Shown here piece after piece: positions 42,526 to 58,372 of a stretch of 64,000 nt of DNA. The stretch lies in NCBI GenBank assembly GCA_963713975.1, contig OY970218.1:3520001-3584000 (forward strand), in the 5' to 3' direction. The notes under the pieces were generated by a model. The model searched no databases. It saw only the letters and a program-made list of their open reading frames with translations, and had not been told where the DNA came from. The position numbers and the translations under genes were made by a program. The DNA is from an uncultured Chloroflexia bacterium (GTDB lineage: Bacteria; Chloroflexota; Limnocylindria; Limnocylindrales; CSP1-4). Position 1 is the first letter of the stretch. Every line of letters begins with the position of its first letter.

Positions 42526-42836
42526 AACGCCGGTCGGACCGGGATGCGACCGGGTGGCGGCAAGGATGCAGAACGGATTCACGTTGTCTTGAGATTCCGC
42601 GACCCGGCACGCCCCTAGAGTCCACTTAACCGCGCTTGCAGCGGCGGGTCTTGGCACGACCGGGTCGCCCGGCCCGCCCGTCGATGGTTGCGAAAGGAGG
42701 AGCCACCGGAGGAGGGATAGCCCGACACGGCCCACCTGCCCGCGCCGCGCCAACAGTTCGCCGCAGGGCCGCAGACCGGGCCACCGTCGATCGAGCCCCG
42801 GGGACCGGGGCCAATCCACTAGAGGGAGTTCGAGGC

Positions 42837-43580
42837 ATGGTTTGGGATACCAACATTTTCCTCGCCGAAGTGTTCGGGACGGGACTCCTCGTCCTGCTCG
42901 GTGACGGCGTGGTCGCAGGCGTCCTGCTCGCGAAGTCCAAGTCCAACAACGCTGGCTGGATCGTCATCACAGCGGCATGGGCGTTCGCCGTGTTCGTCGG
43001 CGTCGTCGTCGCCGGCCCGATCAGCGGCGCGCACCTGAACCCGGCGGTCACGATCGGCCTCGCCGTCCAGGGCGCCACCCCGTGGGACCAGGTCCCCGTG
43101 TACCTGCTGGGCGAGTTCGTCGGGGCCTTCATCGGCGCGACGCTCGTCACGATCCACTATTGGGATCACTACAAGCAGACCGAGGACCAGGGCCTCAAGC
43201 TCGCCACGTACTGCACCGCTCCGAACATCCGCAACTACCCGCTCAACTTCGTCTCAGAGGTCATCGGCACCTTCGTGCTGGTGTTCGTGATCTTCACGTT
43301 CGGCACCAACGGCAGCTCGGCCGGCCTCGCATCGCTGGGGGCCCTGCCCGTCGCGATCCTCGTGTTCTCGATCGGCATGTCGCTCGGCGGCACGACCGGG
43401 TACGCGATCAACCCGGCCCGTGACCTCGGGCCCCGCATCATCCACGCGATCCTGCCGGTCCCGGGCAAGGGTGGCTCGGACTGGGAGTACTCCTGGGTTC
43501 CGGTCGTCGGCCCGGTTGTCGGTGGAATCCTGGCGGCGTTGGTCTACAACGGCGTCTGGGTCAACGTGATGGGGATGTAG
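42837..43580 (+). CDS. glpF: Glycerol uptake facilitator (MIP/aquaglyceroporin)
   Basis: SGAHLNPAVT and GYAINPARDLGPR motifs with multiple TM helices. Confidence 0.95.
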   Translation: MVWDTNIFLAEVFGTGLLVLLGDGVVAGVLLAKSKSNNAGWIVITAAWAFAVFVGVVVAGPISGAHLNPAVTIGLAVQGATPWDQVPVYLLGEFVGAFIGATLVTIHYWDHYKQTEDQGLKLATYCTAPNIRNYPLNFVSEVIGTFVLVFVIFTFGTNGSSAGLASLGALPVAILVFSIGMSLGGTTGYAINPARDLGPRIIHAILPVPGKGGSDWEYSWVPVVGPVVGGILAALVYNGVWVNVMGM

Positions 43581-43667: not shown

Positions 43668-44666
43668 ATGAAGAAGCTCATCAACGCACCCGAGAACGTC
43701 GTCGACGAGGCCCTCGCGGGGATGCTCGCCGCCCACCCGGGCTACATCCGGGTCGAGGAGCCGAACATCGTCGTCCGCAAGGACGCCCCGCGCGCCGGCA
43801 AGGTCGGCGTGATCTCGGGTGGTGGCTCGGGCCACGAGCCGATGCACGGCGGCTTCGTCGGCATGGGCATGCTCGACGCGGCCTGCCCGGGTGCCGTGTT
43901 CACGTCGCCCGTCCCGGACCAGATGCTCGCGGCCACCAAGGCCGTGGACGGTGGCGCGGGCGTGCTCCACATCGTCAAGAACTACACCGGCGACATCATG
44001 AACTTCGAGATGGCGGCCGAGATGGCACGCGCCGAAGGGCTCGAGGTCACGGCGGTCGTCATCGCGGACGACGTCGCGGTCAAGGATTCGCTGTACACGG
44101 CCGGCCGGCGCGGCGTCGGCGGCACGGTGCTCGCGGAGAAGATCGTCGGCGCGGCCGCCGAGGCGGGTGCCGACCTGGCCACCGTCACGGCGCTCTGCCA
44201 GAAGGTCCAGGACAACGTCCGCTCCATGGGCATGGCCCTCACGAGCTGCACGGTGCCCATGGCCGGCAAGCCGACATTCGAGATCGCGGACGACGAGATG
44301 GAGATCGGCGTCGGCATCCATGGTGAGCCGGGCCGGTCCCGCGAGAAGCTCGCCACGGCCGACGAGATCACCGAGATGCTCGCCACGCCGATCCTCGACG
44401 ACCTGCCCTTCGAGAGCGGGGACAACGTCCTCGCGTTCGTGAACGGCCTCGGCGGCACCCCGCTCGTCGAGCTCTATGTCGTCTACAACAAGCTTGCCCA
44501 GATGTGCGCCGCACGAGGCGTGACGATCACCCGCAACCTCATCGGCAGCTACATCACGTCGCTCGACATGGCCGGCTGCTCCATCACCCTGCTCAAGCTC
44601 GACGACGAGCTGACGAAGTACTGGGACGCCCCGGTCAACACGCCTGCGCTCCGGTGGGGCGTCTGA
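43668..44666 (+). CDS. dhaK: Dihydroxyacetone kinase subunit K
   Basis: [40 protein letters not shown] and GIHGEPG. Confidence 0.96.
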
Positions 44667-44700
44667 CCCGGCGACCCGATCTGCGAGCGGGAGAACCACG

Positions 44701-45348
44701 ATGAGCACCGCGCCACACATCAGCTACGACGACGTCGTGGCATGGGTCAGTCTGCTGGCCGAGCGGTTCCACGCCGAGAAGGAGTACCTCACGGCGCTGG
44801 ACTCCGCGATCGGGGATGCCGACCACGGCATCAACATGGATCGCGGCCTCGGGGCCGTGATGGTCAAGCTGCCGGCGCTGCCAACCGGCGATGTCGGCGC
44901 CTTCCTCAAGGGCGTGGGGATGACGCTCGTCTCCACCGTCGGCGGCGCGAGCGGTCCGCTCTACGGCACCTTCTTCCTCCAGCTCGGTGGCGCGACCGCC
45001 GGCAGGACGGAGATCGAGCTCGGTGACTTCGCCACGGGGCTGGAGGCCGGCGTCGCCGGGATCCAGCGCCTGGGCAAGGCCGAGCCGGGCGACAAGACCA
45101 TGCTCGACGCACTCCTGCCGGCACGCGACGCGCTGCGCGCGGGCGTTGACCGGGGCGACAGCCCGGCCGACGCTCTTGGCGCGGCCGTCGCGGCGGCCGA
45201 GCAGGGCATGGTCGCCACCATCCCGCTCGTCGCCCGCAAGGGTCGGGCGAGCTACCTCGGGGAGCGCAGCGCGGGTCACCAGGACCCGGGTGCGACGTCC
45301 TCCCATCTCCTCCTCAAGGCTGCCGCCGATTCCTGGTTCCAAGCCTAG
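44701..45348 (+). CDS. dhaL: Dihydroxyacetone kinase subunit L
   Basis: [33 protein letters not shown] and [23 protein letters not shown]. Confidence 0.95.
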
Positions 45349-45379
45349 GCATCCTTCACACACAGGAGCTCGCATCTTC

Positions 45380-46876
45380 ATGACCAAGTATGTCGGGGCC
45401 CTCGACCAGGGCACCACGAGCACCCGCTTCATGATCTTCGACCACGCGGGCGGCGTGGTCGCCATCGACCAGAAGGAGCACGAGCAGATCTTCCCCAAGC
45501 CCGGCTGGGTAGAGCACGACGCGATCGAGATCTGGACCCGCTGCCGGGAAGTCATCAAGGGCGCCATGGCCAAGGCCGGCATCACCGCCGCCGACCTCGC
45601 CGCCGTGGGCATCACCAACCAGCGCGAGACCGCGCTGGTCTGGGACAGGAAGACCGGCATGCCGGTCTTCAACGCGATCGTCTGGCAGGACACTCGAACC
45701 GACGTCCTCGTGAACGAGTTCGCCAAGGAGGGCGGGCAGGACCGCTTCCGCGCGAAGGTCGGCCTGCCGCTGGCCACGTACTTCTCGGGGCCCAAGGTCC
45801 GCTGGATCCTGGACAACGTCCCCGGCGCGCGCGCAAAGGCGGAGGCCGGCGACCTGGTGTTCGGCAACATGGACACCTGGTGCATCTGGAACCTCACGGG
45901 CGGCGTCAACGGCGGCGTCCATGTGACGGACGTCACCAACGCCAGCCGCACCATGCTCATGGACCTCGAGACCCTGTCCTGGGACGATGAGATCCTCGGC
46001 ATCATGGGCATCCCGAAGTCCATGCTCCCGGAGATCAAGGCATCGTCCGAGGTCTACGGCACCTGTGTCGGCGACCTCGCCGGCGTGCCGGTTGCGGGCG
46101 ACCTCGGCGACCAGCAGGCGGCCCTGTTCGGCCAGACGTGCTTCTCGCCCGGCGAGGCGAAGAACACCTACGGCACCGGCTGCTTCATGCTCATGAACAC
46201 GGGCGAGAAGGCTGTCCCGTCCAAGAGCGGCCTGCTCACCACGATGAGCTACAAGATCGGCGACCAGCCGGCGGTGTACGCCCTCGAGGGGTCCATCGCG
46301 ATCACCGGCGCGCTCGTGCAGTGGCTGCGCGACAACCTCGGCATGATCGCCAAGTCCGAGGACGTGGAGGCGCTCGCGGCCACGGTCGATGACAACGGCG
46401 GCGTCTACTTCGTCCCCGCGTTCTCCGGCCTGTTCGCCCCGTACTGGAAGAGCGACGCTCGCGGTGTCATCGCGGGCCTCACCCGTTACGTGAACAAGGG
46501 TCACATCGCGCGTGCCGTCCTCGAGGCGACGGCGTGGCAGACCCGCGAAGTGCTCGACGCCATGAACACCGACTCCGGTGTTCCGCTGACGGCCCTCAAG
46601 GTCGACGGTGGCATGGTGTTCAACAACATGCTCATGCAGTTCCAGGCCGATGTCCTGGGCGTCCCGGTCATCCGGCCGGTCGTCGCCGAGACCACGGCCC
46701 TGGGCGCGGCCTATGCCGCCGGCCTCGCGGTCGGCTACTGGGCCGAGATCGAGGACCTGCGCGAGAACTGGGCGCGTGACGCCGAGTGGACCCCGGAGAT
46801 GGCTGCCGAGATCCGCGAGAAGGACTACGCCCAGTGGAAGAAGGCCGTCACGCGGACCTTCAACTGGGTCGACTAG
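45380..46876 (+). CDS. glpK: Glycerol kinase
   Basis: [60 protein letters not shown] and [16 protein letters not shown]. Confidence 0.97.
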
Positions 46877-46900
46877 CCTCCGTTCGCGTCTGAACGGACC

Positions 46901-46933
46901 CGGCCCCGACGCCCATCACGGGCGTCGGGGCCG
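46901..46933 (+). terminator. 14-bp hairpin after glpK (terminator or mRNA stabiliser)
   Basis: CGGCCCCGACGCCC-ATCAC-GGGCGTCGGGGCCG, without a U-tract. Confidence 0.55.
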
Positions 46934-46953
46934 TCACCTGACAGGGAGGGATC

Positions 46954-47358
46954 ATGCAACCAGGCGTCGCCTGCGTCGGGCTCGTCGTGGTCTCACACTC
47001 GAGCCGGATCGCCGAGGGAACGGCCGAGCTGGCCGGACAGATGGCCGGACCCGACGTCCGCATCCGGCCGGCCGGAGGGATGGAGGACGGCTCCATCGGC
47101 ACGGATGCCGCCCGCATCGCCATGGCCATCGGCGAGGCCGATGCCGGCGCGGGGGTCGTGGTCGTGGCGGACCTCGGCAGCGCCGTGCTCGCCACCCGCA
47201 CGGCACTGGAGCTGCTGGGTGACCCGGGGAACGTGCGCCTCAGCCGCGGCCCGATCGTCGAGGGCGCGGTCATGGCCGCCGTCCAGTCGAGCACGGGTTC
47301 TGACCTGGAGCAGGTCCTCGAGGCGGCCGAGGGTGCCGCGTCCCTGCCCAAGGGTTAG
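46954..47358 (+). CDS. dhaM: DhaM PTS EIIA(Man)-type phosphotransferase subunit
   Basis: VGLVVVSHS..IAEG, AGG..DGSIGTD, ADLGSAV and PIVEGAV. Confidence 0.9.
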   Translation: MQPGVACVGLVVVSHSSRIAEGTAELAGQMAGPDVRIRPAGGMEDGSIGTDAARIAMAIGEADAGAGVVVVADLGSAVLATRTALELLGDPGNVRLSRGPIVEGAVMAAVQSSTGSDLEQVLEAAEGAASLPKG

Positions 47359-47446
47359 AGTGGGGGCCGGGCGTCCGCCCGTGGCGGGCCCGCGAACGAG
47401 TCAGCTTGGGCGCGTCGGCCTGCGCCCACACAGCGAGGTGAACCAC

Positions 47447-49129
47447 ATGACGGTGCCGCACGCCGTCGACGTCCTCGTCATCGGAGGAGGCGCGACGGGT
47501 GCCGGGGTCCTCCGCGACCTGGCGCGGAGGGGCCTGCGGGCCCTGCTCGTGGAGCGCAGCGACTTCGGGACCGGGACGACGGGCCGCTACCACGGCCTGC
47601 TGCACTCCGGCGGCCGTTACGTGGGCAAGGACAAGGTCGCCGCCCGTGAGTGCATCGTCGAGAACCGCGTTCTGCGCCGGATCGCCCCCGCGAGCATCGA
47701 GGATACGGGCGGCTACTTCGTGGCCACGCCCGACGATCCCGACGACTACGTGGAGGCATTCGCGGAGAACTGCCGCCTCTCCGGTGTCGACTGCGAGGAG
47801 GTCAAGGTCGCGGACCTGCTTGCCCGCGAGCCGGCGCTCAACCCGAGGATCCGGCGGGCATTCCGCGTGCCGGACGGCTCCGTGGAACCGTGGCAGCTGA
47901 TCGAGGCGACCGTCACCGACGCCCGCCGCCACGGCAGCGAGGCCCTCGCCTACCAGCGCGTGATCGGGATGGATCTCAGCGGCGGCCGGATCGCGGCCGT
48001 GACCTTGCGCGACGAGCGGACGGGCACTGTGTCGCAGGTCTGGACCCACTTCGTGATCTCGGCGGCCGGCGCCTGGGCGGGACAGATCGCCGCCCTGGCG
48101 AGGGTCAACGTCGAGATGACCCCCGGCAAGGGCACGATGCTCATCTTCAATCACCGGATGACCGATGCCGTGGTCAATCGCTGCCATCGCTCAGCGGACG
48201 GCGACATCATGGTCCCCGTCCACACGGTGGCCATCCTGGGCACCACCGACATCAAGGTTCCCGATCCCGACGACTACGAGATCACCCGGGAGGAGGTTCG
48301 GCGTCTCGTCGGCGAGGGCTCCAAGATGTTCCCGGATCTCCCGCGGATGCGCATCCTTCGCGCGTATGCGGGCGTGCGTCCCCTCTACCAACCGCCGGCG
48401 GCAACGGTGGCCGAAGCGGGCAATCGGGCGATCACCCGGGCCCACTCCATCCTCGACCATGCCGACCAGGGCGTGGAGAACTTCGTCTCGATCGTTGGGG
48501 GCAAGCTGACCACGCACCGCCTGATGGCCGAGGAGACCGTGGACGCGGTCGCGGCCAGGATGGGCGTCTCGGCGCCGTGCACGACGGCGGACGAGGTCCT
48601 GCCGGACCAGGACGGCGGTCACACCTACTGGCTGGGCCACCGCCTCGCAGACCACGAGCAGGAGGGCGGCGGTGACGCCAACCTCGTATGCGAGTGCGAG
48701 ATCGTCACCCGGAAGATGGTAGAAGGCTACCTGGACACGCACTGGCCCTGCTCCATCGACGACGTCCGGCGTGGCACCCGCGTCGGCATGGGACCGTGCC
48801 AGGGGGCGTTCTGCACCTTCCGGGTCGCGGGCCTCATGGCGGAGCGACTCGATGCGCACACGGCGGCCACAGGGCAGCCGGCGCCGGGTGCCCACGTCGT
48901 CGACGGGCACCACCCTGGGAGCAGCGCGCTGCACGCGGCCATCGCGGACCGGGCGCTGACGGCATTCCTCCGGGAACGGTTCAAGGGCACCCGGCCCATC
49001 GCCGACGGCCGGCAGCTCCAGGAGCTGATGATGACCAACGGGATCTATCTCGGCGTCCTGGGCCTGGAATCGATGGTGTCCGCGCCGGTCCCGGCGCTCG
49101 ACGAGGAGAGCCTCGATGCCGCACGCTGA
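47447..49129 (+). CDS. glpA: Anaerobic glycerol-3-phosphate dehydrogenase subunit A
   Basis: IGGGATGAG, GTTGRYHGLLHSGGRY, YAGVRPL and GGKLTT, plus C-terminal BFD-like CECE...RVGMGPCQG.FC. Confidence 0.93.
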   Translation: MTVPHAVDVLVIGGGATGAGVLRDLARRGLRALLVERSDFGTGTTGRYHGLLHSGGRYVGKDKVAARECIVENRVLRRIAPASIEDTGGYFVATPDDPDDYVEAFAENCRLSGVDCEEVKVADLLAREPALNPRIRRAFRVPDGSVEPWQLIEATVTDARRHGSEALAYQRVIGMDLSGGRIAAVTLRDERTGTVSQVWTHFVISAAGAWAGQIAALARVNVEMTPGKGTMLIFNHRMTDAVVNRCHRSADGDIMVPVHTVAILGTTDIKVPDPDDYEITREEVRRLVGEGSKMFPDLPRMRILRAYAGVRPLYQPPAATVAEAGNRAITRAHSILDHADQGVENFVSIVGGKLTTHRLMAEETVDAVAARMGVSAPCTTADEVLPDQDGGHTYWLGHRLADHEQEGGGDANLVCECEIVTRKMVEGYLDTHWPCSIDDVRRGTRVGMGPCQGAFCTFRVAGLMAERLDAHTAATGQPAPGAHVVDGHHPGSSALHAAIADRALTAFLRERFKGTRPIADGRQLQELMMTNGIYLGVLGLESMVSAPVPALDEESLDAAR

Positions 49130-50450
49130 CGTCGTCGTCATCGGTGCCGGGCTCGCCGGGATGGTCGCCGCGACACGGCTCGCCGAGGCGGGCGCAGTGG
49201 TGACGCTGGTCGCCAAGGGCCACGCGAGCACCCACTGGGGCTCGGGCGGGCTGGACGTCGCGGCGCCGACCGGTGCAGCCACCACGGCCGACGGGGTCGC
49301 GCGCCTCGCGAGGCTCGAGCACCCGTACGCGTTCCTGGCTCCGGACGTCGCGCCGTCCGTCGGCTGGCTCCTCGATCGGCTGGAGGCAGGGGGGCTCCCC
49401 TACTCAGGAACGCTCGACACGCCCATCCGGCGCGTGCCCACGGCCATCGGCGGCACGCGGCGCGTCGCGATCGTGCCCGAGGCCCAGGCCGCGGCGCAGC
49501 GGGCATGGCAGGGGGACGAGGTCCTGGTGGTCGCCGGCCCAACCGGGTTCAAGGACTTCTGGCCGGCCGCGATCGCGGGCAGCCTGGGTCGTGAGGCCGT
49601 GTGGCACGGCGCGGACCGGCCGGACCGGCTGGTGGGCGTGGCCGTGGACCTGCCCGGTCTCTCGGAGCGGAACAACCTGAACGCGCTCCTGCTGGCGGGC
49701 CGATTCGATGACCCGTCCCGGTGGTCGGACGACATCGGCCGGATCGCCAAGGCAGTCGAGCGGGCCGCCGGGGGTCGGCCGGGGCGCGTCGCCCTGCCCG
49801 CGATCTTCGGCCTGAGCCGGCACACGGAGATCTGGGCCGAGCTCCGGGCGCGGCTGTCCCTCGAGCCGTTCGAGGTTCCGCTGGTGCCCCCCAGCATCCC
49901 GGGCATCCGCCTGTGGCGGCTGCTCCGCGAGCACCTCCGAGCGGCCGGCGGTCGCATCCAGGTGGGTGAGGCCGTGGCGAGGATCCACGTCGAGGCAGGT
50001 CGAGTGACCGCGGTGGAGATGGAGGCCGCCACCCGGACCCACCTGATCCGCACCGAGGCCATCGTCCTGGCAACGGGCGGCATCGCCGGGGGCGGGCTCG
50101 TTGCCCACGGCGACGGCCGCCTGGCCGAACCCCTGCTCGACCTGCGCGTCGACGCCCCCGAGCACGACCTGTGGCTGGTCAAGGACGCCCTGGACCCGGC
50201 GGGCCACCCGATCGAGGCGGCGGGCGTGCCGACGGATCCCGGCCTCCGGCCGCTCGGCCCCGCACACCAGGTCTCGCACGCCAACGTGCTCGTCGCCGGT
50301 GCGCTCCTCGCCCGACAGCGCGCCCTGCGGGAGCGCTGCGGGGACGGCGTGGCCGTCGCATCGGGCTGGCGCGCCGCCAACCAGTTGGCCGCCGGCGCCA
50401 CCCGCCATCCTGTCGGCCGCGAGCCGGTGACCCCGAGGTTCGAGCAGTGA
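49116..50450 (+). CDS. glpB: Anaerobic glycerol-3-phosphate dehydrogenase subunit B
   Basis: VIGAGLAG, PTAIG..R, PPSIPGIRL, LATGG..GGGL and CGDGVAVASG. Lies between glpA and glpC. Confidence 0.9.
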   Translation: MPHADVVVIGAGLAGMVAATRLAEAGAVVTLVAKGHASTHWGSGGLDVAAPTGAATTADGVARLARLEHPYAFLAPDVAPSVGWLLDRLEAGGLPYSGTLDTPIRRVPTAIGGTRRVAIVPEAQAAAQRAWQGDEVLVVAGPTGFKDFWPAAIAGSLGREAVWHGADRPDRLVGVAVDLPGLSERNNLNALLLAGRFDDPSRWSDDIGRIAKAVERAAGGRPGRVALPAIFGLSRHTEIWAELRARLSLEPFEVPLVPPSIPGIRLWRLLREHLRAAGGRIQVGEAVARIHVEAGRVTAVEMEAATRTHLIRTEAIVLATGGIAGGGLVAHGDGRLAEPLLDLRVDAPEHDLWLVKDALDPAGHPIEAAGVPTDPGLRPLGPAHQVSHANVLVAGALLARQRALRERCGDGVAVASGWRAANQLAAGATRHPVGREPVTPRFEQ

Positions 50451-51784
50451 GCATCGCCGACGTCGTCCGGGAGGCGGCCGCAGACCGGCCCGTGTCGTCC
50501 ACCGCCGACGAGTGCCTCAAGTGCAACGTCTGCAACACGGTCTGCCCGGTGATGCGGGTCACGGACCTGTTCGCCGGCCCCAAGTACGAGGGCCCGCAGG
50601 CGCAGCGCCTACGCATGGCCGCCGGGCAGGTGATCCAGGGGCCGCACTCGAGCAATCCGCGCTCCCCCGACCACTCGGTGGACTACTGCTCCGGCTGCGG
50701 CTGGTGCACGACCGCGTGTCCGGCGGGCGTGAAGATCGCCGAGATGAACAACCAGGCCCGCGGGCGGCTCCGCGAGGGCAAGCGGCCCAGGCTTCGTGAC
50801 TGGACCCTCGGCCAGACCGACCTCACGGGGTCGATGGGCGTGCTCTTCTCGCCGCTCGCCAACTTCGCCTTCCACAACCGCGTCGTGCGGGCGGTGGTCG
50901 AGGTCGGCTTCGGCGTCCACCGCAAGGCGCCGTTCCCCCGGTTCGCGAAACGCACCTTCGCCTCGACCTGGAAGAAGCGCCAGGCCAGGAGCGGCGACGG
51001 GGGAAGGCCGAAGGGCCGGCCGGGTCCGGACGCGGCCATCGTCTATTTCCATGGCTGCTCGGCCAACTACTACGAGCCGCACGTGGCCGAGGCCGCGATC
51101 TGGGTGCTCAAGCGGAACGGCTTCGAGACGATCGTCCCCGAGCAGGTCTGCTGCGGACTGCCGCTGATCAGCAACGGGCTCTACGACGACGCTCGCGAGC
51201 GTGCGTGCACGAACACGAAGGTGCTCGCCGAGTACGCCCGGGCCGGCTACCGGATCATCGGCACCTCCACCTCCTGCACCCACACGCTCAAGGCCGAGTA
51301 CGAGGAGATGCTCGACATGCGCGACGACGATACCCGCGCCGTCGCCCATGCCACCTGGGACATCTGCGAGTTCCTGCTGCACCTGCACGAGGAAGGGCGC
51401 CTCGACACCGGCTTCGGCCGCCTGGACGAGGACCTCGCCTACCACGCCCCGTGCCAGCTCCGGAGCCACGGCATCGGGCTGCCGGCGCTCGATCTGTTCG
51501 CCCTCGTCCCGGGGCTGCGGGCCGTGGACATGGACCACGACTGCTGCGGCATGGCGGGCACGTATGGCCTCAAGCGCGAGAAGTACGACATCGCGGCCAG
51601 GGTCGGCGAGCCGCTCTTCCGTAAGGTCAGGGAATCGGGCGCCAGCGAGGCGGCCTGCGACTCCGAGACCTGCCGCTGGCAGATCGAGACGGCGACCGGG
51701 GTCCGGACCCGTCACCCGGTCGAGATCCTGCGGGACGCCTACCGGTCCGCGGACGAGGCGACGGCACCCGCCACAGCGGGTTGA
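50447..51784 (+). CDS. glpC: Anaerobic glycerol-3-phosphate dehydrogenase subunit C
   Basis: CLKCNVCNTVCP and CSGCGWCTTACP ferredoxin motifs and two CCG domains (VCCGLP, DCCGMAGTYG). GTG overlaps the glpB stop. Confidence 0.92.
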   Translation: MSIADVVREAAADRPVSSTADECLKCNVCNTVCPVMRVTDLFAGPKYEGPQAQRLRMAAGQVIQGPHSSNPRSPDHSVDYCSGCGWCTTACPAGVKIAEMNNQARGRLREGKRPRLRDWTLGQTDLTGSMGVLFSPLANFAFHNRVVRAVVEVGFGVHRKAPFPRFAKRTFASTWKKRQARSGDGGRPKGRPGPDAAIVYFHGCSANYYEPHVAEAAIWVLKRNGFETIVPEQVCCGLPLISNGLYDDARERACTNTKVLAEYARAGYRIIGTSTSCTHTLKAEYEEMLDMRDDDTRAVAHATWDICEFLLHLHEEGRLDTGFGRLDEDLAYHAPCQLRSHGIGLPALDLFALVPGLRAVDMDHDCCGMAGTYGLKREKYDIAARVGEPLFRKVRESGASEAACDSETCRWQIETATGVRTRHPVEILRDAYRSADEATAPATAG

Positions 51785-51885
51785 GGGTTCGGACGGCCCA
51801 TCAAGGTCACCTTCCGGGCCCCGAGGACGGTCGGATCGACACTCGACACGAGTGCGGTCGGGGCGCGAACCTTGTCTCGATTGCG

Positions 51886-53073
51886 ATGGAGTCAAGCAGC
51901 GCTCCTCAGGTGGTGATCGTCGGTGGCGGTGGCACAGGCGGTGCTCTCGCCCACGACCTCACGCTCCGTGGACTCAGGGTCGTGCTCGTAGAGCGCCACG
52001 GGCTGACGTCCGGGACCACGGGGCGCCACCATGGACTGTTCCATTCGGGCGCCAGGTACGCGGTCAACGACCCCGAATCCGCCGCCGAGTGCATCCGCGA
52101 GAACCGCATCCTCCGTCGGATCTGTCCCGGCTCGTTCGAGCTCAACGACGGCCTGTTCGTTGCGCTCGACGAAGAGGACTTGGACTTCCGCGAACGGTTC
52201 ATGCCCGCCTGCGAGGCCTCCGGCATCCCCGTCCGCTGGCTGACCGCCGCCGAGGCACTGCGCCTCGAGCCCAACCTCGACCCCGGACTCCTGGGCGCCG
52301 CCCAGGTTCCCGATGGGACCATGGATGCGATGCGCCTGCCGCTGCGCTTCTTTGCGACCGCCCTGGCCAACGGCGCCGCCATCAACCCGTACACCGAGGT
52401 CACGGGCCTGAATGGCTCCTCCGGTTGCGTGACGGGCGTCCGGGTCCTGGACCGGATGACGGGTCGGGCCTATGCCATCGGCGCCGATGTCGTCGTCAAT
52501 GCCGCTGGCCCGTGGGGCGGCCAGGTCGGACGGATGGCCGGTGTCGACGTGCCGGTGCGGCCGTCGCCGGGCGTACTCGTGGCGATGTGCGGCCGCCACA
52601 GCGAGATGGTCGTGAGCCGCCTGCACGCATCGTCAGACGGCGACATCGTGGTGCCCCAGCGGGCACTCTCGATCATCGGGACCAGCTCCTGGCTGGCGGA
52701 GGACCCGGACGAGCTCGACGTACCCGAGGATCACGTCCAGCGGATGCTCACGGAAGGTGCCCGGCTCCTCCCGTCGCTGCGGGGAGCGGAGATGCGGGCC
52801 GCGTGGTCGGCGGCGCGGCCGCTGGTCGGCGATCGCGGCGGGGAGACCGGGCGCGAGCTGAGCCGCACCTTCAAGTGCTTCGACCACGCGGCGGACGACG
52901 GCGTCGAGGGCTTCGTCACGATCTCCGGCGGCAAGGGGACGACCCTGCGCGGCATGGCGGAGCTCACGGCGGACGTCGTCTGCCGCAAGCTGGGGATCGA
53001 AACCCCGTGCCGCACGGCGGAGACGGTCCTGCTGCCCCACACCGCCTTCCATCGCGTCCCGGTGGCGGCCTGA
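51886..53073 (+). CDS. Second, short GlpA-like FAD-dependent dehydrogenase (no C-terminal BFD domain)
   Basis: VGGGGTG, GTTGRHHGLFHSGARYAV.D.ESA.ECI.EN, NAAGPW, WSAARPL and GGKGTT.R.MAE. It ends right after PCRTAE. Start uncertain. Confidence 0.88.
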   Translation: MESSSAPQVVIVGGGGTGGALAHDLTLRGLRVVLVERHGLTSGTTGRHHGLFHSGARYAVNDPESAAECIRENRILRRICPGSFELNDGLFVALDEEDLDFRERFMPACEASGIPVRWLTAAEALRLEPNLDPGLLGAAQVPDGTMDAMRLPLRFFATALANGAAINPYTEVTGLNGSSGCVTGVRVLDRMTGRAYAIGADVVVNAAGPWGGQVGRMAGVDVPVRPSPGVLVAMCGRHSEMVVSRLHASSDGDIVVPQRALSIIGTSSWLAEDPDELDVPEDHVQRMLTEGARLLPSLRGAEMRAAWSAARPLVGDRGGETGRELSRTFKCFDHAADDGVEGFVTISGGKGTTLRGMAELTADVVCRKLGIETPCRTAETVLLPHTAFHRVPVAA

Positions 53074-53074
53074 C

Positions 53075-53863
53075 ATGACGACCCTGCTCGATCGGTCGGC
53101 CGAGGCGCCCGAGGCGGCGCCCGTGCCGTCCCGCCCGTTCCGGATCCTGCGCCACCACCGGGGCCGGGAGCCTCGCTGGGACCACTACCGGGCGCCCGTG
53201 ACGTCCGCACGGACGACGGTCCTGGATGCCCTGACCTGGATCCGTGCCCACCTGGATCCGACCCTGGATGTCCGCCACTCGTGCTTCCACGCCTCGTGCG
53301 GGACATGCGGCATGCGCGTCAACGGCCGCGACGTGCTCGCCTGTGTCACGCGGCTGGCCGACCTCGGCCCGGGCGAGGTGACCGTCGAGCCGCTGCTCAA
53401 CCAGCCGATCGTGAGCGACCTGGTCGTGGACATCGAGGCACTCTACGAAGCGTTTGACGGAGTGGGCCTGCCGCTCGTCCGCCGGTCCGAGGCCATGGGC
53501 GGCTCGCGCCCGGCTGATGGCGTGGACCACCTGACCCGATTCGAGGACTGCATCGAGTGCGGGCTGTGCGTGTCGGCCTGCCCGATCGAGGCCAGCGACG
53601 CCGCCTACGTCGGCCCCGGCGTGCTCGCGGCCGCCTGGAGGGTCATCGACGAGCCCCGTGACGCAGATCCGGCGCGAGCCTTCGCGCTCGTCGACGGCGA
53701 CCAGGGCGCGTGGCGCTGCCACCTGGCCTTCGAGTGCAGCGAGGCGTGCCCGTCGGGTGCGCTGCCAGCCGAACAGATCATGCACCTTCGGCGCGGGCTC
53801 CTGCGCCACCGCCTCCGGGCGGTGTTCGGACGCGCGGCCGGAGGTGACGGGAGGGCGTCGTGA
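53075..53863 (+). CDS. SdhB/FrdB-like iron-sulfur subunit
   Basis: TVLDAL..I, SCFHASCGTCGMRVNG..VLAC ([2Fe-2S]), CIECGLCVSACP ([4Fe-4S]) and CHLAFECSEACP ([3Fe-4S]). Confidence 0.92.
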   Translation: MTTLLDRSAEAPEAAPVPSRPFRILRHHRGREPRWDHYRAPVTSARTTVLDALTWIRAHLDPTLDVRHSCFHASCGTCGMRVNGRDVLACVTRLADLGPGEVTVEPLLNQPIVSDLVVDIEALYEAFDGVGLPLVRRSEAMGGSRPADGVDHLTRFEDCIECGLCVSACPIEASDAAYVGPGVLAAAWRVIDEPRDADPARAFALVDGDQGAWRCHLAFECSEACPSGALPAEQIMHLRRGLLRHRLRAVFGRAAGGDGRAS

Positions 53864-54270
53864 TGGACCGCGTCGAAGGGCGACGGGCGGACGCGCCACG
53901 GAGGCGCGGCATCGCCGGCTGGTTCGATCCGCGCCACCGGCATCTCGGCGAATGGGCGTTCGCCCTCAACCGCCTGTCGGGACTGGGCGTGCTGCTCTAC
54001 CTGTACCTGCACCTCGTGATCCTGTCGCTGCTTGCGCGCGGCCCGGATGAGTGGGACGCCTTCGTCGGCATCGCGACGAGCCCGGCGATCCTCGTCTTCG
54101 ATGTGGTGCTGCTTGCCGGGCTGCTCATCCACGGCTTCAACGGCGTCCGCCTCACCCTGCTGGGCTCCGGGCTGGTGGTCGGCCGCCAGAAGGCGCTCTA
54201 TGTGGCGCTGATGGTGATCGCCGGGGTCGTGCTGCTGACCGGTGCCATCCGGATCTTCGAGGTGGCCTGA
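53860..54270 (+). CDS. SdhC-like cytochrome b membrane anchor
   Basis: WAFALNRLSG...YLYLHL...LIHGFNGVR with three hydrophobic helices. Confidence 0.88.
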   Translation: MMDRVEGRRADAPRRRGIAGWFDPRHRHLGEWAFALNRLSGLGVLLYLYLHLVILSLLARGPDEWDAFVGIATSPAILVFDVVLLAGLLIHGFNGVRLTLLGSGLVVGRQKALYVALMVIAGVVLLTGAIRIFEVA

Positions 54271-54271
54271 C

Positions 54272-54655
54272 ATGGCCGTGACGTGGACCCCGGAAGCCGC
54301 CGAGCGCATCCGAGCCGAACGGGACTGGGCATGGGTCATCCAGGCCGCGACGGGGGCCGCGGTGCTGGTCCTGGTCACGGTCCACATGATCGCGAACCAC
54401 TTCATCCTGCCCGATGGGCTGCGGGGCTTCGCGGAGGTCGTGGCCTACCTGTCCAACCCGGTGATCGTCGCTCTTGAGCTCACCTTCCTCGTGACGGTGA
54501 CTTGGCACGCGCTGCTGGGTGTCCGGGCCGTGCTGTTCGACTTCGGGTTCTCGTCGCGGGCCGAGATCCGGATCACGCGCCTGTTGGCCGTCGTCGGCGT
54601 GCTCACGGTCGGGTATGGTCTCTGGCTCACGGCGGTGATCACCGGCCAGGGCTGA
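54272..54655 (+). CDS. SdhD-like hydrophobic membrane anchor
   Basis: W.W.IQAATG...VTVHM...TWHALLGVRAVLFD with three hydrophobic helices. Confidence 0.85.
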   Translation: MAVTWTPEAAERIRAERDWAWVIQAATGAAVLVLVTVHMIANHFILPDGLRGFAEVVAYLSNPVIVALELTFLVTVTWHALLGVRAVLFDFGFSSRAEIRITRLLAVVGVLTVGYGLWLTAVITGQG

Positions 54656-54683
54656 TCGCCGCTCGACCCTCAGGAGGAGCGAC

Positions 54684-55754
54684 GTGCCCGAAGCGCCCGA
54701 AGCGCCAGCACCGCTGCGGGTGGTGGTGATCGGGTCCGGCGCCGTGGGCTCGTTCCTGGGGGGCTCGCTGGCTGCCGCTGGTCACGCCGTGACCCTGCTG
54801 GGCCGGCGGCCGGCCACGGGTGCCGATGCCGGGCTGCTGCTCCTCGAGGGCCCGGACGAGACGCGCCGGGTGCCCGTCCAGCAGACACATGACGCGGCGG
54901 AGGCGGACGTCCCGCAGCTCGCCATCGCTGCCGTCAAGATGTTCGATCTCGAGGAGGCGCTGGCAACGGCGGCCCGCTGGCCGGACGCCGTGATCATGAC
55001 CGTCCAGAACGGCGTGGGCGCCGAGGAGGTCGCGCGGGCGGCCCGGACGTCACCCCTGATCGCCGCTTCCCTCACCACGGCCGTGGAGCCCGTCCCGGGC
55101 GGCGTGCGACGGCTGCGCACCGGGGGCATTGGCGTGGCCGCGGTACCCGGCGACGGCACCGCCGCCGCGGGTGCGACGGCCCGGCGTCTCGCGGAGTCCC
55201 TGGCCGCGGCCGGCCTGCCGGCGCGCGTCTACCCCGATGCCGCCGCGATGAAGTGGTCCAAGCTCCTCGCGAACCTCGTCGGCAACGCGACGAGCGCCAT
55301 CCTGGACATGAGCCCGGGCGAGATCTACGCGGACCGCCGCCTCTACCCCATCGAGCGGCGCCAGCTCCAGGAGGCGGCAGCGGTGATGCGGGCCCTCGGC
55401 CTGGAGACGGTGGCACTGCCCGGGGCGCACGTGCAGCTGCTGCTGAGGGGCCTGGCTCTGCCAGCGGCGATCGGCCGCCCCGTGATCGCCCGGGCGATCG
55501 CCGGCGCCCGGGGCGGCAAGTCCCCATCCCTCCGCCTGCATGTCAGGGGTGGCGGCAGCGGCCCGACCGAGGCGCGCTGGCTCAACGGCGCAGTCGCAAC
55601 CGCGGGCATCCGGACCGGCGTGCCAGCACCCGTCAATGCCTGCCTGGCCGCGCTCGTGGACGAGGTGGCGGCGGACCCTGGACGCGCTGCGTGGTTCGCC
55701 GGCAGGCCGGACCGGCTCGCGGACGCCGTGGCCGCGTGGCCGACACGCCCGTAA
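54684..55754 (+). CDS. panE: Ketopantoate reductase (PanE/ApbA) family protein
   Basis: VIGSGAVG, AVK, QNGVG.EE, KWSKLL.N, KSPSL, TEARWLNGAV and PAPVN. Confidence 0.8.
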   Translation: MPEAPEAPAPLRVVVIGSGAVGSFLGGSLAAAGHAVTLLGRRPATGADAGLLLLEGPDETRRVPVQQTHDAAEADVPQLAIAAVKMFDLEEALATAARWPDAVIMTVQNGVGAEEVARAARTSPLIAASLTTAVEPVPGGVRRLRTGGIGVAAVPGDGTAAAGATARRLAESLAAAGLPARVYPDAAAMKWSKLLANLVGNATSAILDMSPGEIYADRRLYPIERRQLQEAAAVMRALGLETVALPGAHVQLLLRGLALPAAIGRPVIARAIAGARGGKSPSLRLHVRGGGSGPTEARWLNGAVATAGIRTGVPAPVNACLAALVDEVAADPGRAAWFAGRPDRLADAVAAWPTRP

Positions 55755-55783
55755 CGAACGCCCCGGGCCTATACTCCGCCTCC

Positions 55784-56413
55784 GTGGAACCCTTCGACCT
55801 CCTGCGCGCCGTCCTCATCGTGGCCGCCGCCTACCTGATCGGTGGCATCCCCTGGGGCGTCATCGTCGCCAAGGTCACGGGGGGGCCGGATCCGCGCAGC
55901 ATGGGCAGCGGCCGGACAGGCGGCGCCAACACGATGCGGGCCCTCGGGCCGCGCCTGGCCCTCGTCTCGGGGCTGCTCGACATGCTCAAAGGCACGGTCG
56001 CGGTGCTCCTGGCGCAGGCGCTCGGTGGCGGCGTGGGCGTCGAGGTCGCGGCGGCTCTGGCGGCGATCGTCGGCCACAGCCGCTCCCCGTTCCTGGGCTT
56101 CGGGGGTGGACGCGGCGTCGCGCCAGCCTTCGGCGGGCTCCTGGCCTTCCAGCCGCTCATCGCCCTGGCCATCATCCCGCTCTTCGCCGGGGTGATCCTG
56201 GTCACCCGCTACTCGTCGCTGGGCTCGCTGGCCGGCTCAGCCGCGGCAGGGATCCTGCTGGTCATCGCGACCGTGACCGTCCCCCTGGACCCGTGGATGT
56301 ACGTCTACGCGGTGGGCGGCACCGGGCTCGTCTGGCTGTTCCACATGGACAACATCCACCGGCTCCTCAACGGCCAGGAGCGCAAGCTCGGGTCCCCGCG
56401 ACCCGAGGAGTGA
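55784..56413 (+). CDS. plsY: Glycerol-3-phosphate acyltransferase PlsY
   Basis: AYLIGGIP.G, DPRSMGSG.TGGAN..R, DMLKG, GHS.SPFL.F.GGRGVA, YSSLGS and H..NI.RL..G.E. TATACT lies 8 nt upstream (leaderless). Confidence 0.93.
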   Translation: MEPFDLLRAVLIVAAAYLIGGIPWGVIVAKVTGGPDPRSMGSGRTGGANTMRALGPRLALVSGLLDMLKGTVAVLLAQALGGGVGVEVAAALAAIVGHSRSPFLGFGGGRGVAPAFGGLLAFQPLIALAIIPLFAGVILVTRYSSLGSLAGSAAAGILLVIATVTVPLDPWMYVYAVGGTGLVWLFHMDNIHRLLNGQERKLGSPRPEE

Positions 56414-56448
56414 CCCGGGAAGTCGCCCGGACCTCGAGGCCGTCACCC

Positions 56449-56733
56449 TCAGTCGGGGATCGCCTCGCCCATCCCGCCGTCGACGAACCCCTCGAGGGTC
56501 TCGATGGCGGTGTCCTCGTCCTCGCCCTCCGCCACCAGCCGGATCCGGTGGCCCTTCGCCACCCCGCTGCCCATCACCATCAGGATCGACTTGGCATCCA
56601 CCGGTGCCGAACCCCGCTCGAGGTTCTCGAGGGTGATCCTGGAGGTGAACGACGCCGCGGTCCTGACGAACATGGCGGCCGGACGCGCATGCAGGCCGCT
56701 GGGGTTGAGAACGGTCCGTTCGGTGCTCCGCAT
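56449..56733 (-). CDS. ptsH: Phosphocarrier protein HPr
   Basis: NPSGLHARPAA (His15 motif), VDAKSIL (Ser46 motif) and AEGEDE. ATG 56733 with TACCCT 6 nt upstream. Confidence 0.93.
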   Translation of the reverse strand: MRSTERTVLNPSGLHARPAAMFVRTAASFTSRITLENLERGSAPVDAKSILMVMGSGVAKGHRIRLVAEGEDEDTAIETLEGFVDGGMGEAIPD

Positions 56734-56765
56734 GTCCGCAGGGTACCCGACGCGTGTCCTCCTGA

Positions 56766-57950
56766 TCAGGCGTCGGGCAGGGTGGCGGCCATCACCCGCA
56801 GCACGTTCTCGCCCATCACCGCGCGGATCGCGGCGTCCTCCAGGCCCGCGGCCAGCAGCGCGTCCGTGAGCCAGACCACGTTGGCCGCGTCGAAGGGGAC
56901 GGCCACCGCGCCGTCCCAGTCCGAGCCCAGGGCGACGTGCTCCACGCCCACGCGCTCCACGGCGTAGGCGATCGAGCGCGCGATGGCAGCCGCGTCCGGA
57001 CCGCCGCTCGCCGTCTCCCAGAAGCCGATCCCCACCAGGCCGCCGGTCGCGGCGATCCCCTCGAGGTGCTCGTCGGAGAGATTGCGGGCGTTGTCGCAGA
57101 TCCCTCGGACACCGGTGTGCGACGCGACAACCGGCCGGCTGGAGATCGCCAGGGCGTCGTCGATGGTCCGTGCCGAGCTGTGCGCGACGTCGAGGACCAC
57201 GCCCCGGGCCTCCATCCGGTGGATCATCTCGCGCCCGGCGCCCGTGAGGCCGTGCTGCTCCACGCCATGGGCAGAGCCACCGAACGCCGTGTCGAAGAAA
57301 TGGGCGGGCGAGATCATCCGGATCCCCGCATCGGCGACGACATCCACGTTGGCCGGGTCGCCGTCGAGCGCGTGGGCGCCCTCGATCGACAGCATGCCGG
57401 CGGTGATCGCCTCGTTGCCCGCGCGGTCGGCCAGGTAGGCCGCCAGCTCCGCCCGCGTCCCGATGATCCGGAAGGCGCCGTCGGACGCCGCCGCAAACCG
57501 TCGGGCGCTTGCCGCCAGGTGCAGGACACGTGGCATCAGGCGGCGCCACGTCGCCGGCGGCCAACGCTTGGCCAGGGCGAGCCTGATCACGTCGTCCGAG
57601 GTGTCCTCGTTGCGATCGATGTTGAGGCCGCGCGGCGTCTTGACTGCCATCGAGAATACCTGGAGCGCCACCCGGCCCTCGATCATCCGCGGCACGTCCA
57701 CGTGGCCGCGGTCGCTGCGACGCAGCAGGTCACGACCGAACAAGAGGGAATCCGCGTGGAGGTCCGCGACGCGCAGGGTCGCGTGGAGCTTGCGCGCACG
57801 ATCACCGACCGGCCCGGAGGGTTCGGGCCCCACGGGGTTCATCTGCGCCTCGGTACGGGCCACCAGGGCGTCCAGTGCCGGCCGTGCGGCGACCAGGGCA
57901 CCTGCGACCGCCACGCCGGTGGCCAGGGCCGCGACCCGCCGGCCGCTCAT
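56766..57950 (-). CDS. Membrane dipeptidase (peptidase M19) with N-terminal signal/anchor
   Basis: VADLHADS, GHVDVPRM, SIEGAH, LDVAH, ASHTG and HVALGSDWDG. Confidence 0.9.
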   Translation of the reverse strand: MSGRRVAALATGVAVAGALVAARPALDALVARTEAQMNPVGPEPSGPVGDRARKLHATLRVADLHADSLLFGRDLLRRSDRGHVDVPRMIEGRVALQVFSMAVKTPRGLNIDRNEDTSDDVIRLALAKRWPPATWRRLMPRVLHLAASARRFAAASDGAFRIIGTRAELAAYLADRAGNEAITAGMLSIEGAHALDGDPANVDVVADAGIRMISPAHFFDTAFGGSAHGVEQHGLTGAGREMIHRMEARGVVLDVAHSSARTIDDALAISSRPVVASHTGVRGICDNARNLSDEHLEGIAATGGLVGIGFWETASGGPDAAAIARSIAYAVERVGVEHVALGSDWDGAVAVPFDAANVVWLTDALLAAGLEDAAIRAVMGENVLRVMAATLPDA

Positions 57951-58372
57951 GCGCCGAAGGCCCGGCCGCGGGTGGGGCGGATCCGCAGCGGCACGTTGTA
58001 GATCGTCGCCATCTCCTCGGCCGACGTGAGGTAGTCGGTGATCCACGCTCCGTACTTGGCGAGGTACGCAGCGTGGTCGGGGACCTGCGGCGTCGCCTGG
58101 TCCACGCGCGCCTCGCCCTCGATGACGACGACGTCGCCACCCTTCCCGTCGTCGTTGAGGTGGAGGGTGACCCGCGGATTGTGGGTGATGTTCAGGTTCC
58201 GCTTGGCGCGCTTGTCCGAGAAGACCAGCGCCTCGCCGTCCTCCCACAGGAACCAGATCGGGAAGGTCTGGGGCTGGCCATCGGGCGTGACGGTCGTCAG
58301 CCAGCCGATCATGTCCGTCCGGAGGCGCGCGAGCGCGTGCGCGTCCGCTTCGGAGCCGGAGTCGAAGACCAT
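57947..58372 (-). CDS. PPOX-class F420-dependent oxidoreductase family protein
   Basis: IGWLTTV.PDGQPQ..PIWF.W...K..NI..NPRV.L...G.DVVVIEG.A...Y..KY. Confidence 0.85.
   Translation of the reverse strand: MVFDSGSEADAHALARLRTDMIGWLTTVTPDGQPQTFPIWFLWEDGEALVFSDKRAKRNLNITHNPRVTLHLNDDGKGGDVVVIEGEARVDQATPQVPDHAAYLAKYGAWITDYLTSAEEMATIYNVPLRIRPTRGRAFGA

Follow-up and report, generated by a model that had tools for sequence, protein, structure and literature searches.

The closest described arrangement to the one reported here is designated "GlpA-SdhBCD (T. pendens)" in Fig. 9b of Schmerling et al. (Commun Biol 2025; PMC11962113), where it is a glycerol-3-phosphate (G3P) dehydrogenase type proposed from synteny for Thermofilum-related archaea. 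The accessible main text of that paper reports no biochemistry for this type, and it generalizes that canonical glpA in Bacteria consistently co-occurs with glpB and glpC. Full-text literature searches returned only this paper and its preprint as naming the glpA-sdhBCD arrangement. In the available text of a second study, a survey of GlpA/FngA homologues (PMC13689815), the terms "succinate dehydrogenase" and "SdhB" have 0 occurrences each. We describe here a bacterial system of the same architecture, encoded in 64,000 nucleotides (nt) of DNA (hereafter "the window"; contig OY970218.1, positions 3,520,001 to 3,584,000, or G000:C1:3520001-3584000) from the single-contig genome (3.62 Mb) of an uncultured Chloroflexia bacterium. 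The window has a G+C content of ∼71%. We propose, with a probability of roughly 0.8, that four adjacent genes encode the subunits of a single membrane-bound G3P:quinone oxidoreductase: GlpA2, a GlpA that lacks the BFD domain and replaces SdhA, and the SdhB/C/D module made up of SdhB2, SdhC2 and SdhD2. An earlier note on this DNA, made from the sequence alone, had suggested that this would be a new respiratory complex architecture; as worded, that claim is not supported, as the accessible text of PMC11962113 already names GlpA-SdhBCD in archaea. The architecture is thus known as an archaeal prediction. What is new here is its presence and wide spread in Bacteria (Chloroflexota, Actinomycetota), and this occurrence and breadth, together with the natural fusions and the CCG-domain variant given below, are not in the searchable literature.

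The four genes are arranged as follows (aa, amino acids).

51886..53073, + strand: glpA2, short GlpA-type flavoprotein of 395 aa, DAO domain only (Pfam PF01266), the proposed catalytic subunit.
53075..53863, + strand: sdhB2, SdhB/FrdB-type three-cluster subunit, Fer2_3 (PF13085) plus 4Fe-4S dicluster (TIGR00384), the proposed electron wire.
53860..54270, + strand: sdhC2, three-helix anchor (PF01127, three hydrophobic segments).
54242..54655, + strand: sdhD2, three-helix anchor (PF01127, three hydrophobic segments).

The start of sdhB2 lies 1 nt past the glpA2 stop and sdhC2 overlaps sdhB2 by 4 nt. For sdhD2, an alternative start is the ATG at 54272, which is 1 nt past the sdhC2 stop. The coordinates, the Cys motifs, the PF01127 matches and hydropathy all agree with the earlier description of genes separated by 1-nt gaps or overlaps and encoding an intact three-cluster SdhB and two three-helix anchors.

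GlpA2 has PF01266 (DAO; 172 bits) as its sole Pfam domain. No PF04324 (Fer2_BFD) match was found in the Pfam search, and the C-terminal four-Cys [2Fe-2S] domain is absent, as the earlier note had claimed for this second GlpA-like gene. Against the NCBIfam GlpA equivalog model TIGR03377, GlpA2 scores 440.7 bits over model positions 1–380 of 530, which falls under the cut-off of 552.8 bits because the C-terminal third is missing. It is 39% identical over 386 aa to GlpA1, the canonical GlpA encoded upstream, and ends just before the GlpA1 BFD domain, where the pre-BFD linker begins. Scores on related models are 62 bits for ThiO (versus 440.7 for the GlpA equivalog) and 87 bits for GlpD (cut-off 360), and there is no DAO_C domain. 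The motifs HSGxRY, RPL and GGK-TT are common to GlpA2, GlpA1 and the solved G3P dehydrogenase (G3PDH) 3da1. The aligned residues of 3da1 and GlpA1 are identical to H53/R57/Y58, R311-P-L and G348-G-K350 of GlpA2, none of which varies in the short-GlpA alignment (A1). In GlpD/GlpO structures the HxGxRY, RPL and GGK residues bind G3P, and those of GlpA2 may do so too. Short GlpAs form a large family (at least 120 top matches, 68–100% identical to the query), whose members are 60–92% identical over their full length and have no stops. That short glpA is a truncated pseudogene was considered and rejected, as 120/120 top matches are 363–424 aa long and cover 92–100% of the query.

SdhB2 matches PF13085 (89 bits) and passes the generic SdhB/FrdB model TIGR00384 with 173.6 bits against a cut-off of 88; its best match in the PDB is 6lum_B (M. 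smegmatis Sdh2). The motifs for [2Fe-2S], [4Fe-4S] and [3Fe-4S] clusters are all there (4+4+3 Cys). In alignments built out of the collected related loci, which are the source of all ligand counts given here, C70, C75, C78, C90, C159, C162, C165, C169, C215, C221 and C225 are kept in 78–79 of 79 homologues. SdhC2 and SdhD2 match PF01127 with 40.9 and 45.8 bits, respectively, and each has three hydrophobic segments by hydropathy. The earlier note's pairs of His at haem-ligand-like positions are found as H51 and H91 in SdhC2 (70/70 homologues) and among H48, H53 and H89 in SdhD2 (69/69 homologues); Arg38 of SdhC2 and Asp100 of SdhD2 are likewise invariant. The canonical SdhC1 and SdhD1 encoded elsewhere in the genome have the same His pattern, and the new subunits are divergent from their canonical counterparts (SdhB2 is 31% identical to SdhB1, SdhC2 32% to SdhC1, and SdhD2 28% to SdhD1). 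In two-haem (type A) anchors, helices 1 and 2 of each subunit carry one His apiece. By analogy, the SdhC2 and SdhD2 His positions presumably correspond to the bP and bD haem ligands, and two haems b in the SdhC2/SdhD2 anchor are plausible.

There is no SdhA gene within the window. The genome's one match to PF02910, the SdhA C-terminal domain, is located outside it at G000:C1:3350561, ∼220 kb from glpA2-sdhBCD, inside a complete sdhC-sdhD-sdhA-sdhB operon where it sits beside SdhB1 and SdhC1/D1. The absence of SdhA/FrdA from the locus, stated in the earlier note, is therefore real, and the separate full sdh operon whose existence the note wanted confirmed has been found. Each of the 5/5 same-genus genomes with short glpA carries one strong SdhA beside SdhB1 and a second SdhB beside short glpA. 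Across the six genomes examined (the window genome and these five), no PF02910 gene lies beside SdhB2. Two of the five have an extra weak PF02910 match elsewhere (56–58 bits), taken to be an aspartate-oxidase-like gene. SdhB2, SdhC2 and SdhD2 are thus not encoded with an SdhA, which is accounted for by the separate sdhCDAB operon.

Conservation of the arrangement was assessed in 160 loci gathered with short GlpA as the sole query: 80 lie on contigs of a set with one genome per species and 80 on metagenome contigs. The latter were found with a profile of more distant short GlpAs (the five-row alignment A4). One row with a stop in its translation (L069:8219-8932) was left out of alignment A2. 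An SdhB-like gene lies directly 3' of short glpA in 141/141 loci with enough downstream DNA (141/160 overall). At the other 19 loci, at most 159 bp separate the glpA stop from the contig end. Conservation of this order excludes chance, and the synteny that the earlier note proposed to look for is thereby established, with the following partner classes.

SdhB + SdhC + SdhD: 89 loci.
SdhB + one anchor detected: 3 loci.
SdhB-CCG fusion of 515–570 aa (Fer2_3 + Fer4 + CCG, TfrB-like): 9 loci.
Short SdhB, no anchor match: 31 loci.
SdhB cut by contig end: 9 loci.

By the record titles of the genome contigs, the arrangement is spread over Chloroflexota (Anaerolineae, Ardenticatenaceae, Ca. Limnocylindrales), Actinomycetota (Solirubrobacterales, Aeromicrobium), Ca. 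Binatia and Planctomycetaceae. The glycerol kinase gene glpK is found at most 700 bp 5' of short glpA in 63 of the 75 SdhB + SdhC + SdhD loci whose upstream DNA extends for 1700 bp or more, and in 0/9 CCG-type loci. Short glpA occurs without glpB or glpC in 78/80 genome loci, the exceptions being L010 and L025. The SdhB-CCG loci (L016, L025, L028, L030, L041, L050, L072, L079 and L123) have no SdhC or SdhD after the fusion and no glpK directly upstream. Their carriers are Solirubrobacterales-type Actinomycetota records, one Binatia record and one metagenome contig (L123).

The two proteins are also found as one chain. Twelve natural short-GlpA::SdhB fusions of 695–752 aa (P0275–P0286) contain DAO, Fer2_3 and Fer4 domains. 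Eleven of these are 65–68% identical to GlpA2 and one is 46% identical, the linker is 70–150 aa, and one fusion comes from an isolate named Actinotalea sp. In four of the collected loci (L081, L089, L114 and L158), glpA reads through in frame into sdhB. Such fusions are classical evidence that both proteins work together. Relatives of 920–1000 aa were also considered as GlpA::SdhB fusions and were rejected, as they are GlpA-BFD-GlpB fusions; canonical GlpA-GlpB single chains in this size range (DAO, BFD in some, FAD_binding_2) are P0143, P0146, P0162, P0164, P0165, P0167, P0175, P0181, P0198 and P0269. One further protein of 1486 aa (P0295) has a precomputed Pfam list of DAO, PEP-utilisers_N, PTS-HPr and Fer2_3, and may be either a DhaM-like/GlpA/SdhB super-fusion or a gene-call artefact.

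To model the complex, GlpA2 (12-row alignment) and SdhB2 (13-row alignment) were predicted together with flavin adenine dinucleotide (FAD) and a 2Fe-2S cluster riding along, in three runs with three controls. The model score was 0.92 (runs 0.91–0.93) and the best of the three controls reached 0.00. The score mark used is reached by 116/157 solved complexes and by 2/215 mismatched pairs, and is only a rough guide here because self-made alignments were used and ligands were included. At least 80% of contacts are common to the runs, and the partner pLDDT (predicted local distance difference test) is at least 77. Contacts of lowest error are predicted between GlpA2 residues 40–47 (the invariant TSGTTGRHH loop) and SdhB2 residues 68–75 (the loop holding [2Fe-2S] ligands Cys70 and Cys75). 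The GlpA2 residues touching SdhB2 in the model are 38–47, 147–150, 304–307 and 384–390, the last being a conserved C-terminal tail. We know of no solved complex between a DAO-fold protein and an SdhB, and so a pass from memorised structures is unlikely. The GlpA2-SdhB2 interface, on which the earlier note had made its proposal depend, is therefore supported at the level of a model.

The genus of the window organism was surveyed in 25 genomes, including the window genome, taking matches of at least 68% identity as short GlpA and those of ∼40% identity as canonical GlpA. Short GlpA is present in 8/25 and canonical GlpA in 12/25. Both forms occur in six genomes, where, as in the window, they share a strand and lie ∼4.4 kb from each other; two genomes (G005 and G009) have the short form only and six have the canonical form only. 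A search of 16 small genomes from the sister family found neither form. G005 and G009 (94% and 93% complete, respectively) yielded neither a canonical GlpA nor the C-terminal domain of GlpD, and their locus order is glpF-dhaK-dhaL-glpK-glpA2-sdhB-sdhC-sdhD-panE. In these two genomes, no FAD-dependent G3PDH other than GlpA2-SdhBCD was found downstream of glycerol kinase; of the contextual arguments for G3P as substrate, this is the strongest. The ancestral layout in the genus appears to be glpF-dhaKL-glpK-glpA2-sdhBCD-panE. The order in G005 and G009, with glpK directly ahead of glpA2, also points to an insertion of glpA1BC between these two genes in the window lineage.

Relationships were examined with FastTree using 199 rows: 30 random SdhB + CD loci (of ∼90) plus the window, all usable SdhB-only and SdhB-CCG loci, GlpA1, and 128/150 cluster representatives (sequences shorter than 375 aa were left out and long ones trimmed to their first 460 residues). 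A single clade (local support 95–99) takes in every SdhB-partnered short GlpA and is separate from that of BFD-type and GlpA-GlpB-fusion proteins. Within the SdhB-partnered clade is a glpK-linked clade of 46 rows (support 99), in which CCG-fusion forms are nested among SdhCD forms. The SdhB-only pairs are its sister clade.

Taken together, conserved synteny, glpK linkage, fusions, the complex model, cofactor ligands and the separate sdh operon strongly support the central inference. Synteny, glpK, fusions, model and ligands do the same for the corresponding proposal of the earlier note, namely a chimeric, SdhA-independent G3P:quinone oxidoreductase coexisting with GlpABC. In the mechanism we propose, glycerol would enter via GlpF and be phosphorylated by GlpK, after which G3P would be oxidized to dihydroxyacetone phosphate (DHAP) on the FAD of GlpA2. 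Instead of using a BFD domain of its own, GlpA2 would dock on the N-terminal ferredoxin domain of SdhB2, in the place that SdhA has in complex II. Electrons would pass from FAD through the [2Fe-2S], [4Fe-4S] and [3Fe-4S] clusters of SdhB2, and then to quinone (probably menaquinone) at the SdhB2/SdhC2/SdhD2 interface and/or via the haem(s) b of SdhC2/SdhD2. The gene content, the invariant ligands, the conserved operon, the fusions and the separate sdhCDAB operon are direct observations; from the evidence given above we infer G3P as substrate, quinone as acceptor, two haems and this direction of electron flow.

Several observations weigh against the assignment as a G3P:quinone oxidoreductase. 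The GlpA2 score is below the curated GlpA cut-off, and the choice of G3P as substrate consequently rests on context and motifs. In the sister clade, glpK is found at most 700 bp 5' in 0/26 SdhB-only loci with enough upstream DNA, and short GlpA + SdhB pairs there are 43–57% identical; in the two loci inspected, they have a peptidase M20 neighbour and no anchors. A short-GlpA/SdhB pair may thus not always act on G3P. In the two loci (L103:2381-5954 and L104:2518-5954), a short-GlpA-like gene (∼52% identity) and an SdhB-like gene follow a peptidase M20-family gene located 5', with no glpK or membrane anchor nearby. Such a pair may be a soluble or otherwise anchored enzyme for another substrate.

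The remaining points concern the acceptor, the physiological role and the strength of the computations. SdhB2 has "CPIEAS" where SdhB1 has "CPSFW", and so the Trp region is gone. Residues 170–174 of SdhB2 (window ∼53582–53596), which follow the final Cys-Pro of the [4Fe-4S] motif, read "IEAS" versus "SFWA" in SdhB1, and this stretch is V/I-A/V-A/G-T across 79 homologues, with no Trp. The Trp of "CPSFW" presumably lines the quinone site in E. coli succinate:quinone oxidoreductase (SQR), and the quinone site of SdhB2 may differ from that of classical SQR. Note also that GlpABC is not the only other G3PDH in the genome. A GlpD-type gene, missed in the earlier note, lies outside the window at G000:C1:2627252-2627623 (PF16901, DAO_C, 88.7 bits; 547-aa open frame), which brings the FAD-dependent G3P dehydrogenases of this organism to three (GlpD, GlpABC and GlpA2-SdhBCD). 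With GlpABC and the GlpD type already there, the role of a third is unexplained. The complex score is a model confidence rather than a measurement, and contacts come without coordinates or a FAD-to-cluster distance. The tree was built quickly with FastTree, rooted at its midpoint and given local Shimodaira-Hasegawa-like supports; it is therefore compatible with a single origin of the SdhB-partnered short GlpAs and does not prove one. Lastly, full-text literature searches turned up no purified or assayed enzyme of the GlpA-SdhBCD type.

One alternative is that the same four subunits form a complex whose physiological substrate is not G3P and could be another polyol phosphate or a 2-hydroxy or amino compound instead. 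We consider this unlikely. In its favour are the sub-threshold GlpA2 score and the glpK-less, M20-neighboured pairs of the sister clade, and many GlpA/FngA homologues are tied to polyols other than glycerol in the available text of PMC13689815. Within the window's own class, however, glpK is directly 5' at the great majority of loci (63/75, as above), the window cluster includes glpF and dhaKL, and glpK is present in G005 and G009, where no further FAD-dependent G3PDH was found. The HSGxRY, RPL and GGK motifs shared with GlpA1 and 3da1 also speak for G3P.

Very unlikely, in our judgement, is a second possibility: SdhB2C2D2 would be a second succinate:quinone or fumarate reductase module borrowing the distant SdhA, and GlpA2 would be a free-standing, GlpD-like peripheral dehydrogenase that is merely adjacent. 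Some bacteria have several Sdh/Frd isoenzymes, SdhB2 does pass TIGR00384, and the anchors resemble SdhC1/D1 down to the positions of the His residues. Such a division is hard to reconcile with adjacency in every testable locus across phyla, with start/stop overlaps, or with in-frame GlpA::SdhB fusion proteins. It is equally at odds with the lack of a second sdhA alongside SdhB2 in the six genomes, with a complex model that passes while its controls score 0.00, and with the low identity (just 31%) of SdhB2 to SdhB1.

Complex II-type enzymes are reversible in principle, two other G3P dehydrogenases are already present in the genome, and locus L076 has a G3P acyltransferase-family gene ∼2 kb downstream. 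Least probable of all, nevertheless, is a complex that chiefly runs backwards, as a quinol:DHAP reductase supplying G3P to lipid synthesis, or a decaying, functionless duplicate, given that every cofactor ligand is intact and invariant, that family members are conserved over their full length without stops, that the context of glpF, glpK and dhaKL is catabolic, and that a G3P/DHAP potential of about −190 mV (PMC13689815, in its available text) makes quinone reduction downhill.

Beyond the assignment of GlpA2-SdhBCD as a G3P:quinone oxidoreductase, a broader picture has somewhat better than even odds. The short-GlpA/SdhB proteins would be a single, old and very widespread bacterial clade of modular respiratory dehydrogenases, in which a DAO-fold flavoprotein replaces SdhA and the output module has been repeatedly swapped (a probably di-haem SdhCD, a fused CCG, or none nearby). 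A peptidase M20-linked, glpK-less sister branch would act on a substrate other than G3P. Many soil and freshwater Chloroflexota and Actinomycetota would rely on the complex as their main respiratory G3P dehydrogenase, in some cases their only one, and genome annotation would at present mis-score its SdhB/C/D as succinate dehydrogenase.

The published generalization that bacterial glpA accompanies glpBC, as worded in the accessible part of PMC11962113, is corrected by these loci. Complex II is usually seen as a fixed SdhA-SdhB pair, and here the SdhB/C/D wire would serve a flavoprotein of unrelated fold. The system offers a natural setting in which to test the modularity of the FAD-to-[2Fe-2S] junction. 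For glycerol-using genomes in which no GlpD or GlpABC has been found, a likely G3P dehydrogenase can now be named. Note that SdhB/C/D matches in metagenome-assembled genomes are, by the same token, not always succinate dehydrogenase. The fusions and the cultured carriers (Actinotalea and Aeromicrobium records) make biochemical tests practical.

In the window, the four genes belong to one continuous glycerol cluster on the + strand (glpF-dhaK-dhaL-glpK-glpA1-glpB-glpC-glpA2-sdhB2-sdhC2-sdhD2), which is followed by a panE/ApbA gene. The members other than those listed above are as follows (ORF, open reading frame).

42630..43580, + strand: glpF-like glycerol facilitator, MIP family, first gene of the cluster (Pfam PF00230, 1.6e-47); coordinates are those of the open frame and the true start is probably later.
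43668..44666, + strand: dhaK, dihydroxyacetone kinase Dak1 subunit (Pfam PF02733, 2.1e-136).
44701..45348, + strand: dhaL, dihydroxyacetone kinase Dak2 subunit (Pfam PF02734, 8.1e-54).
45380..46876, + strand: glpK, glycerol kinase (NCBIfam TIGR01311, 741 bits versus cut-off 590); the start is approximate (∼45380 probable), with the frame open from 44987 and the TIGR01311 alignment beginning at ORF residue 134.
47447..49129, + strand: glpA1, canonical GlpA with BFD [2Fe-2S] domain (TIGR03377, 581 bits versus cut-off 552.8; PF01266 + PF04324); the ORF runs from 47105 and the likely start Met is at 47447, 114 codons in (47105–47446 being extra).
49116..50450, + strand: glpB (TIGR03378, 179.9 bits versus cut-off 174.15).
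50450..51784, + strand: glpC, two 4Fe-4S clusters plus CCG domains (NF008369, 470 bits versus cut-off 278; PF02754 + Fer4); the start is approximate and the ORF opens at 50171.
54684..55754, + strand: panE/ApbA-family NAD(P) oxidoreductase, directly 3' of sdhD2 (TIGR00745, 159.8 bits).

The complete glpA1-glpB-glpC set (47105–51784) thus stands directly 5' of glpA2, in agreement with the earlier note, and a 101-nt spacer precedes glpA2. The glpK frame extends ∼131 codons 5' of the point where the family-model alignment starts (44987–45379). A panE/ApbA gene lies 3' of the system in 12/80 genome loci as well as in G005 and G009; the relatives in which it follows, several of them Chloroflexota, include L010, L012, L017, L019–L021, L024, L026, L027, L035, L043, L171 and L172. 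Whether its product belongs to the GlpA2-SdhBCD system is uncertain. With dhaKL in the cluster, this product could be a glycerol- or dihydroxyacetone-related dehydrogenase rather than a ketopantoate reductase.

A promoter and terminator scan of 44500–56200 returned no promoter-like site and one terminator-like site, on the minus strand and no more than in shuffles; this result says nothing for or against a separate glpA2 transcription unit. Farther downstream, the + strand ORFs at 55540–56967 and 56937–58001 have no Pfam match. They are probably spurious, since they are overlapped by a minus-strand frame at 56766–58247 that encodes a peptidase M19 membrane dipeptidase.

With GlpABC (E. coli, haloarchaea) it shares the family of the catalytic subunit and the substrate context, and in both cases electrons leave the flavoprotein via iron-sulfur clusters. 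GlpA2 differs in lacking the BFD [2Fe-2S] domain and in being encoded with a three-cluster SdhB wire and haem-type anchors instead of the GlpC CCG module; moreover, it has no GlpB or GlpC partner of its own. Near a short glpA, glpB or glpC was seen at three loci alone, those of the window, L010 and L025. With complex II, SdhB2, SdhC2 and SdhD2 share domain content, cluster motifs, three-helix anchors and the histidine pattern. A complex II with two anchors, each with His in helices 1 and 2, is type A in the usual classification. The difference is that SdhA/FrdA is absent, a DAO-fold flavoprotein stands in its place, and G3P, not succinate, is the proposed substrate. GlpD (aerobic, monotopic) is likewise an FAD-dependent, quinone-reducing G3P dehydrogenase of DAO fold; it has a DAO_C domain and no iron-sulfur partner, whereas GlpA2 has no DAO_C domain and does not reach GlpD-level scores.

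Among less direct relatives, the SdhB-CCG proteins of the nine variant loci have the domain order Fer2_3, Fer4, CCG of TfrB (thiol:fumarate reductase subunit B). From these and from non-classical Sdh with CCG-domain subunits, the window system differs in having separate SdhB and SdhC/D and no CCG domain. GlpA-CoxG of Sulfolobus acidocaldarius, as described in the accessible text of PMC11962113, also combines a truncated GlpA-like catalytic subunit lacking FeS cysteines with a separately encoded partner for membrane association, but there the CoxG-like partner has no clusters and here it is a three-cluster SdhB with haem-type anchors. The closest likeness is to GlpA-SdhBCD of Thermofilum, in which genes for putative b, c and d subunits of succinate dehydrogenase come after glpA, the same order as that found at 51886–54655, and for which membrane anchoring and electron transfer in G3P oxidation have been proposed, in the archaeal case from synteny only. 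The two are likened by shared architecture only: the Thermofilum case is archaeal, and the window system is bacterial, widespread and encoded beside a canonical glpABC.

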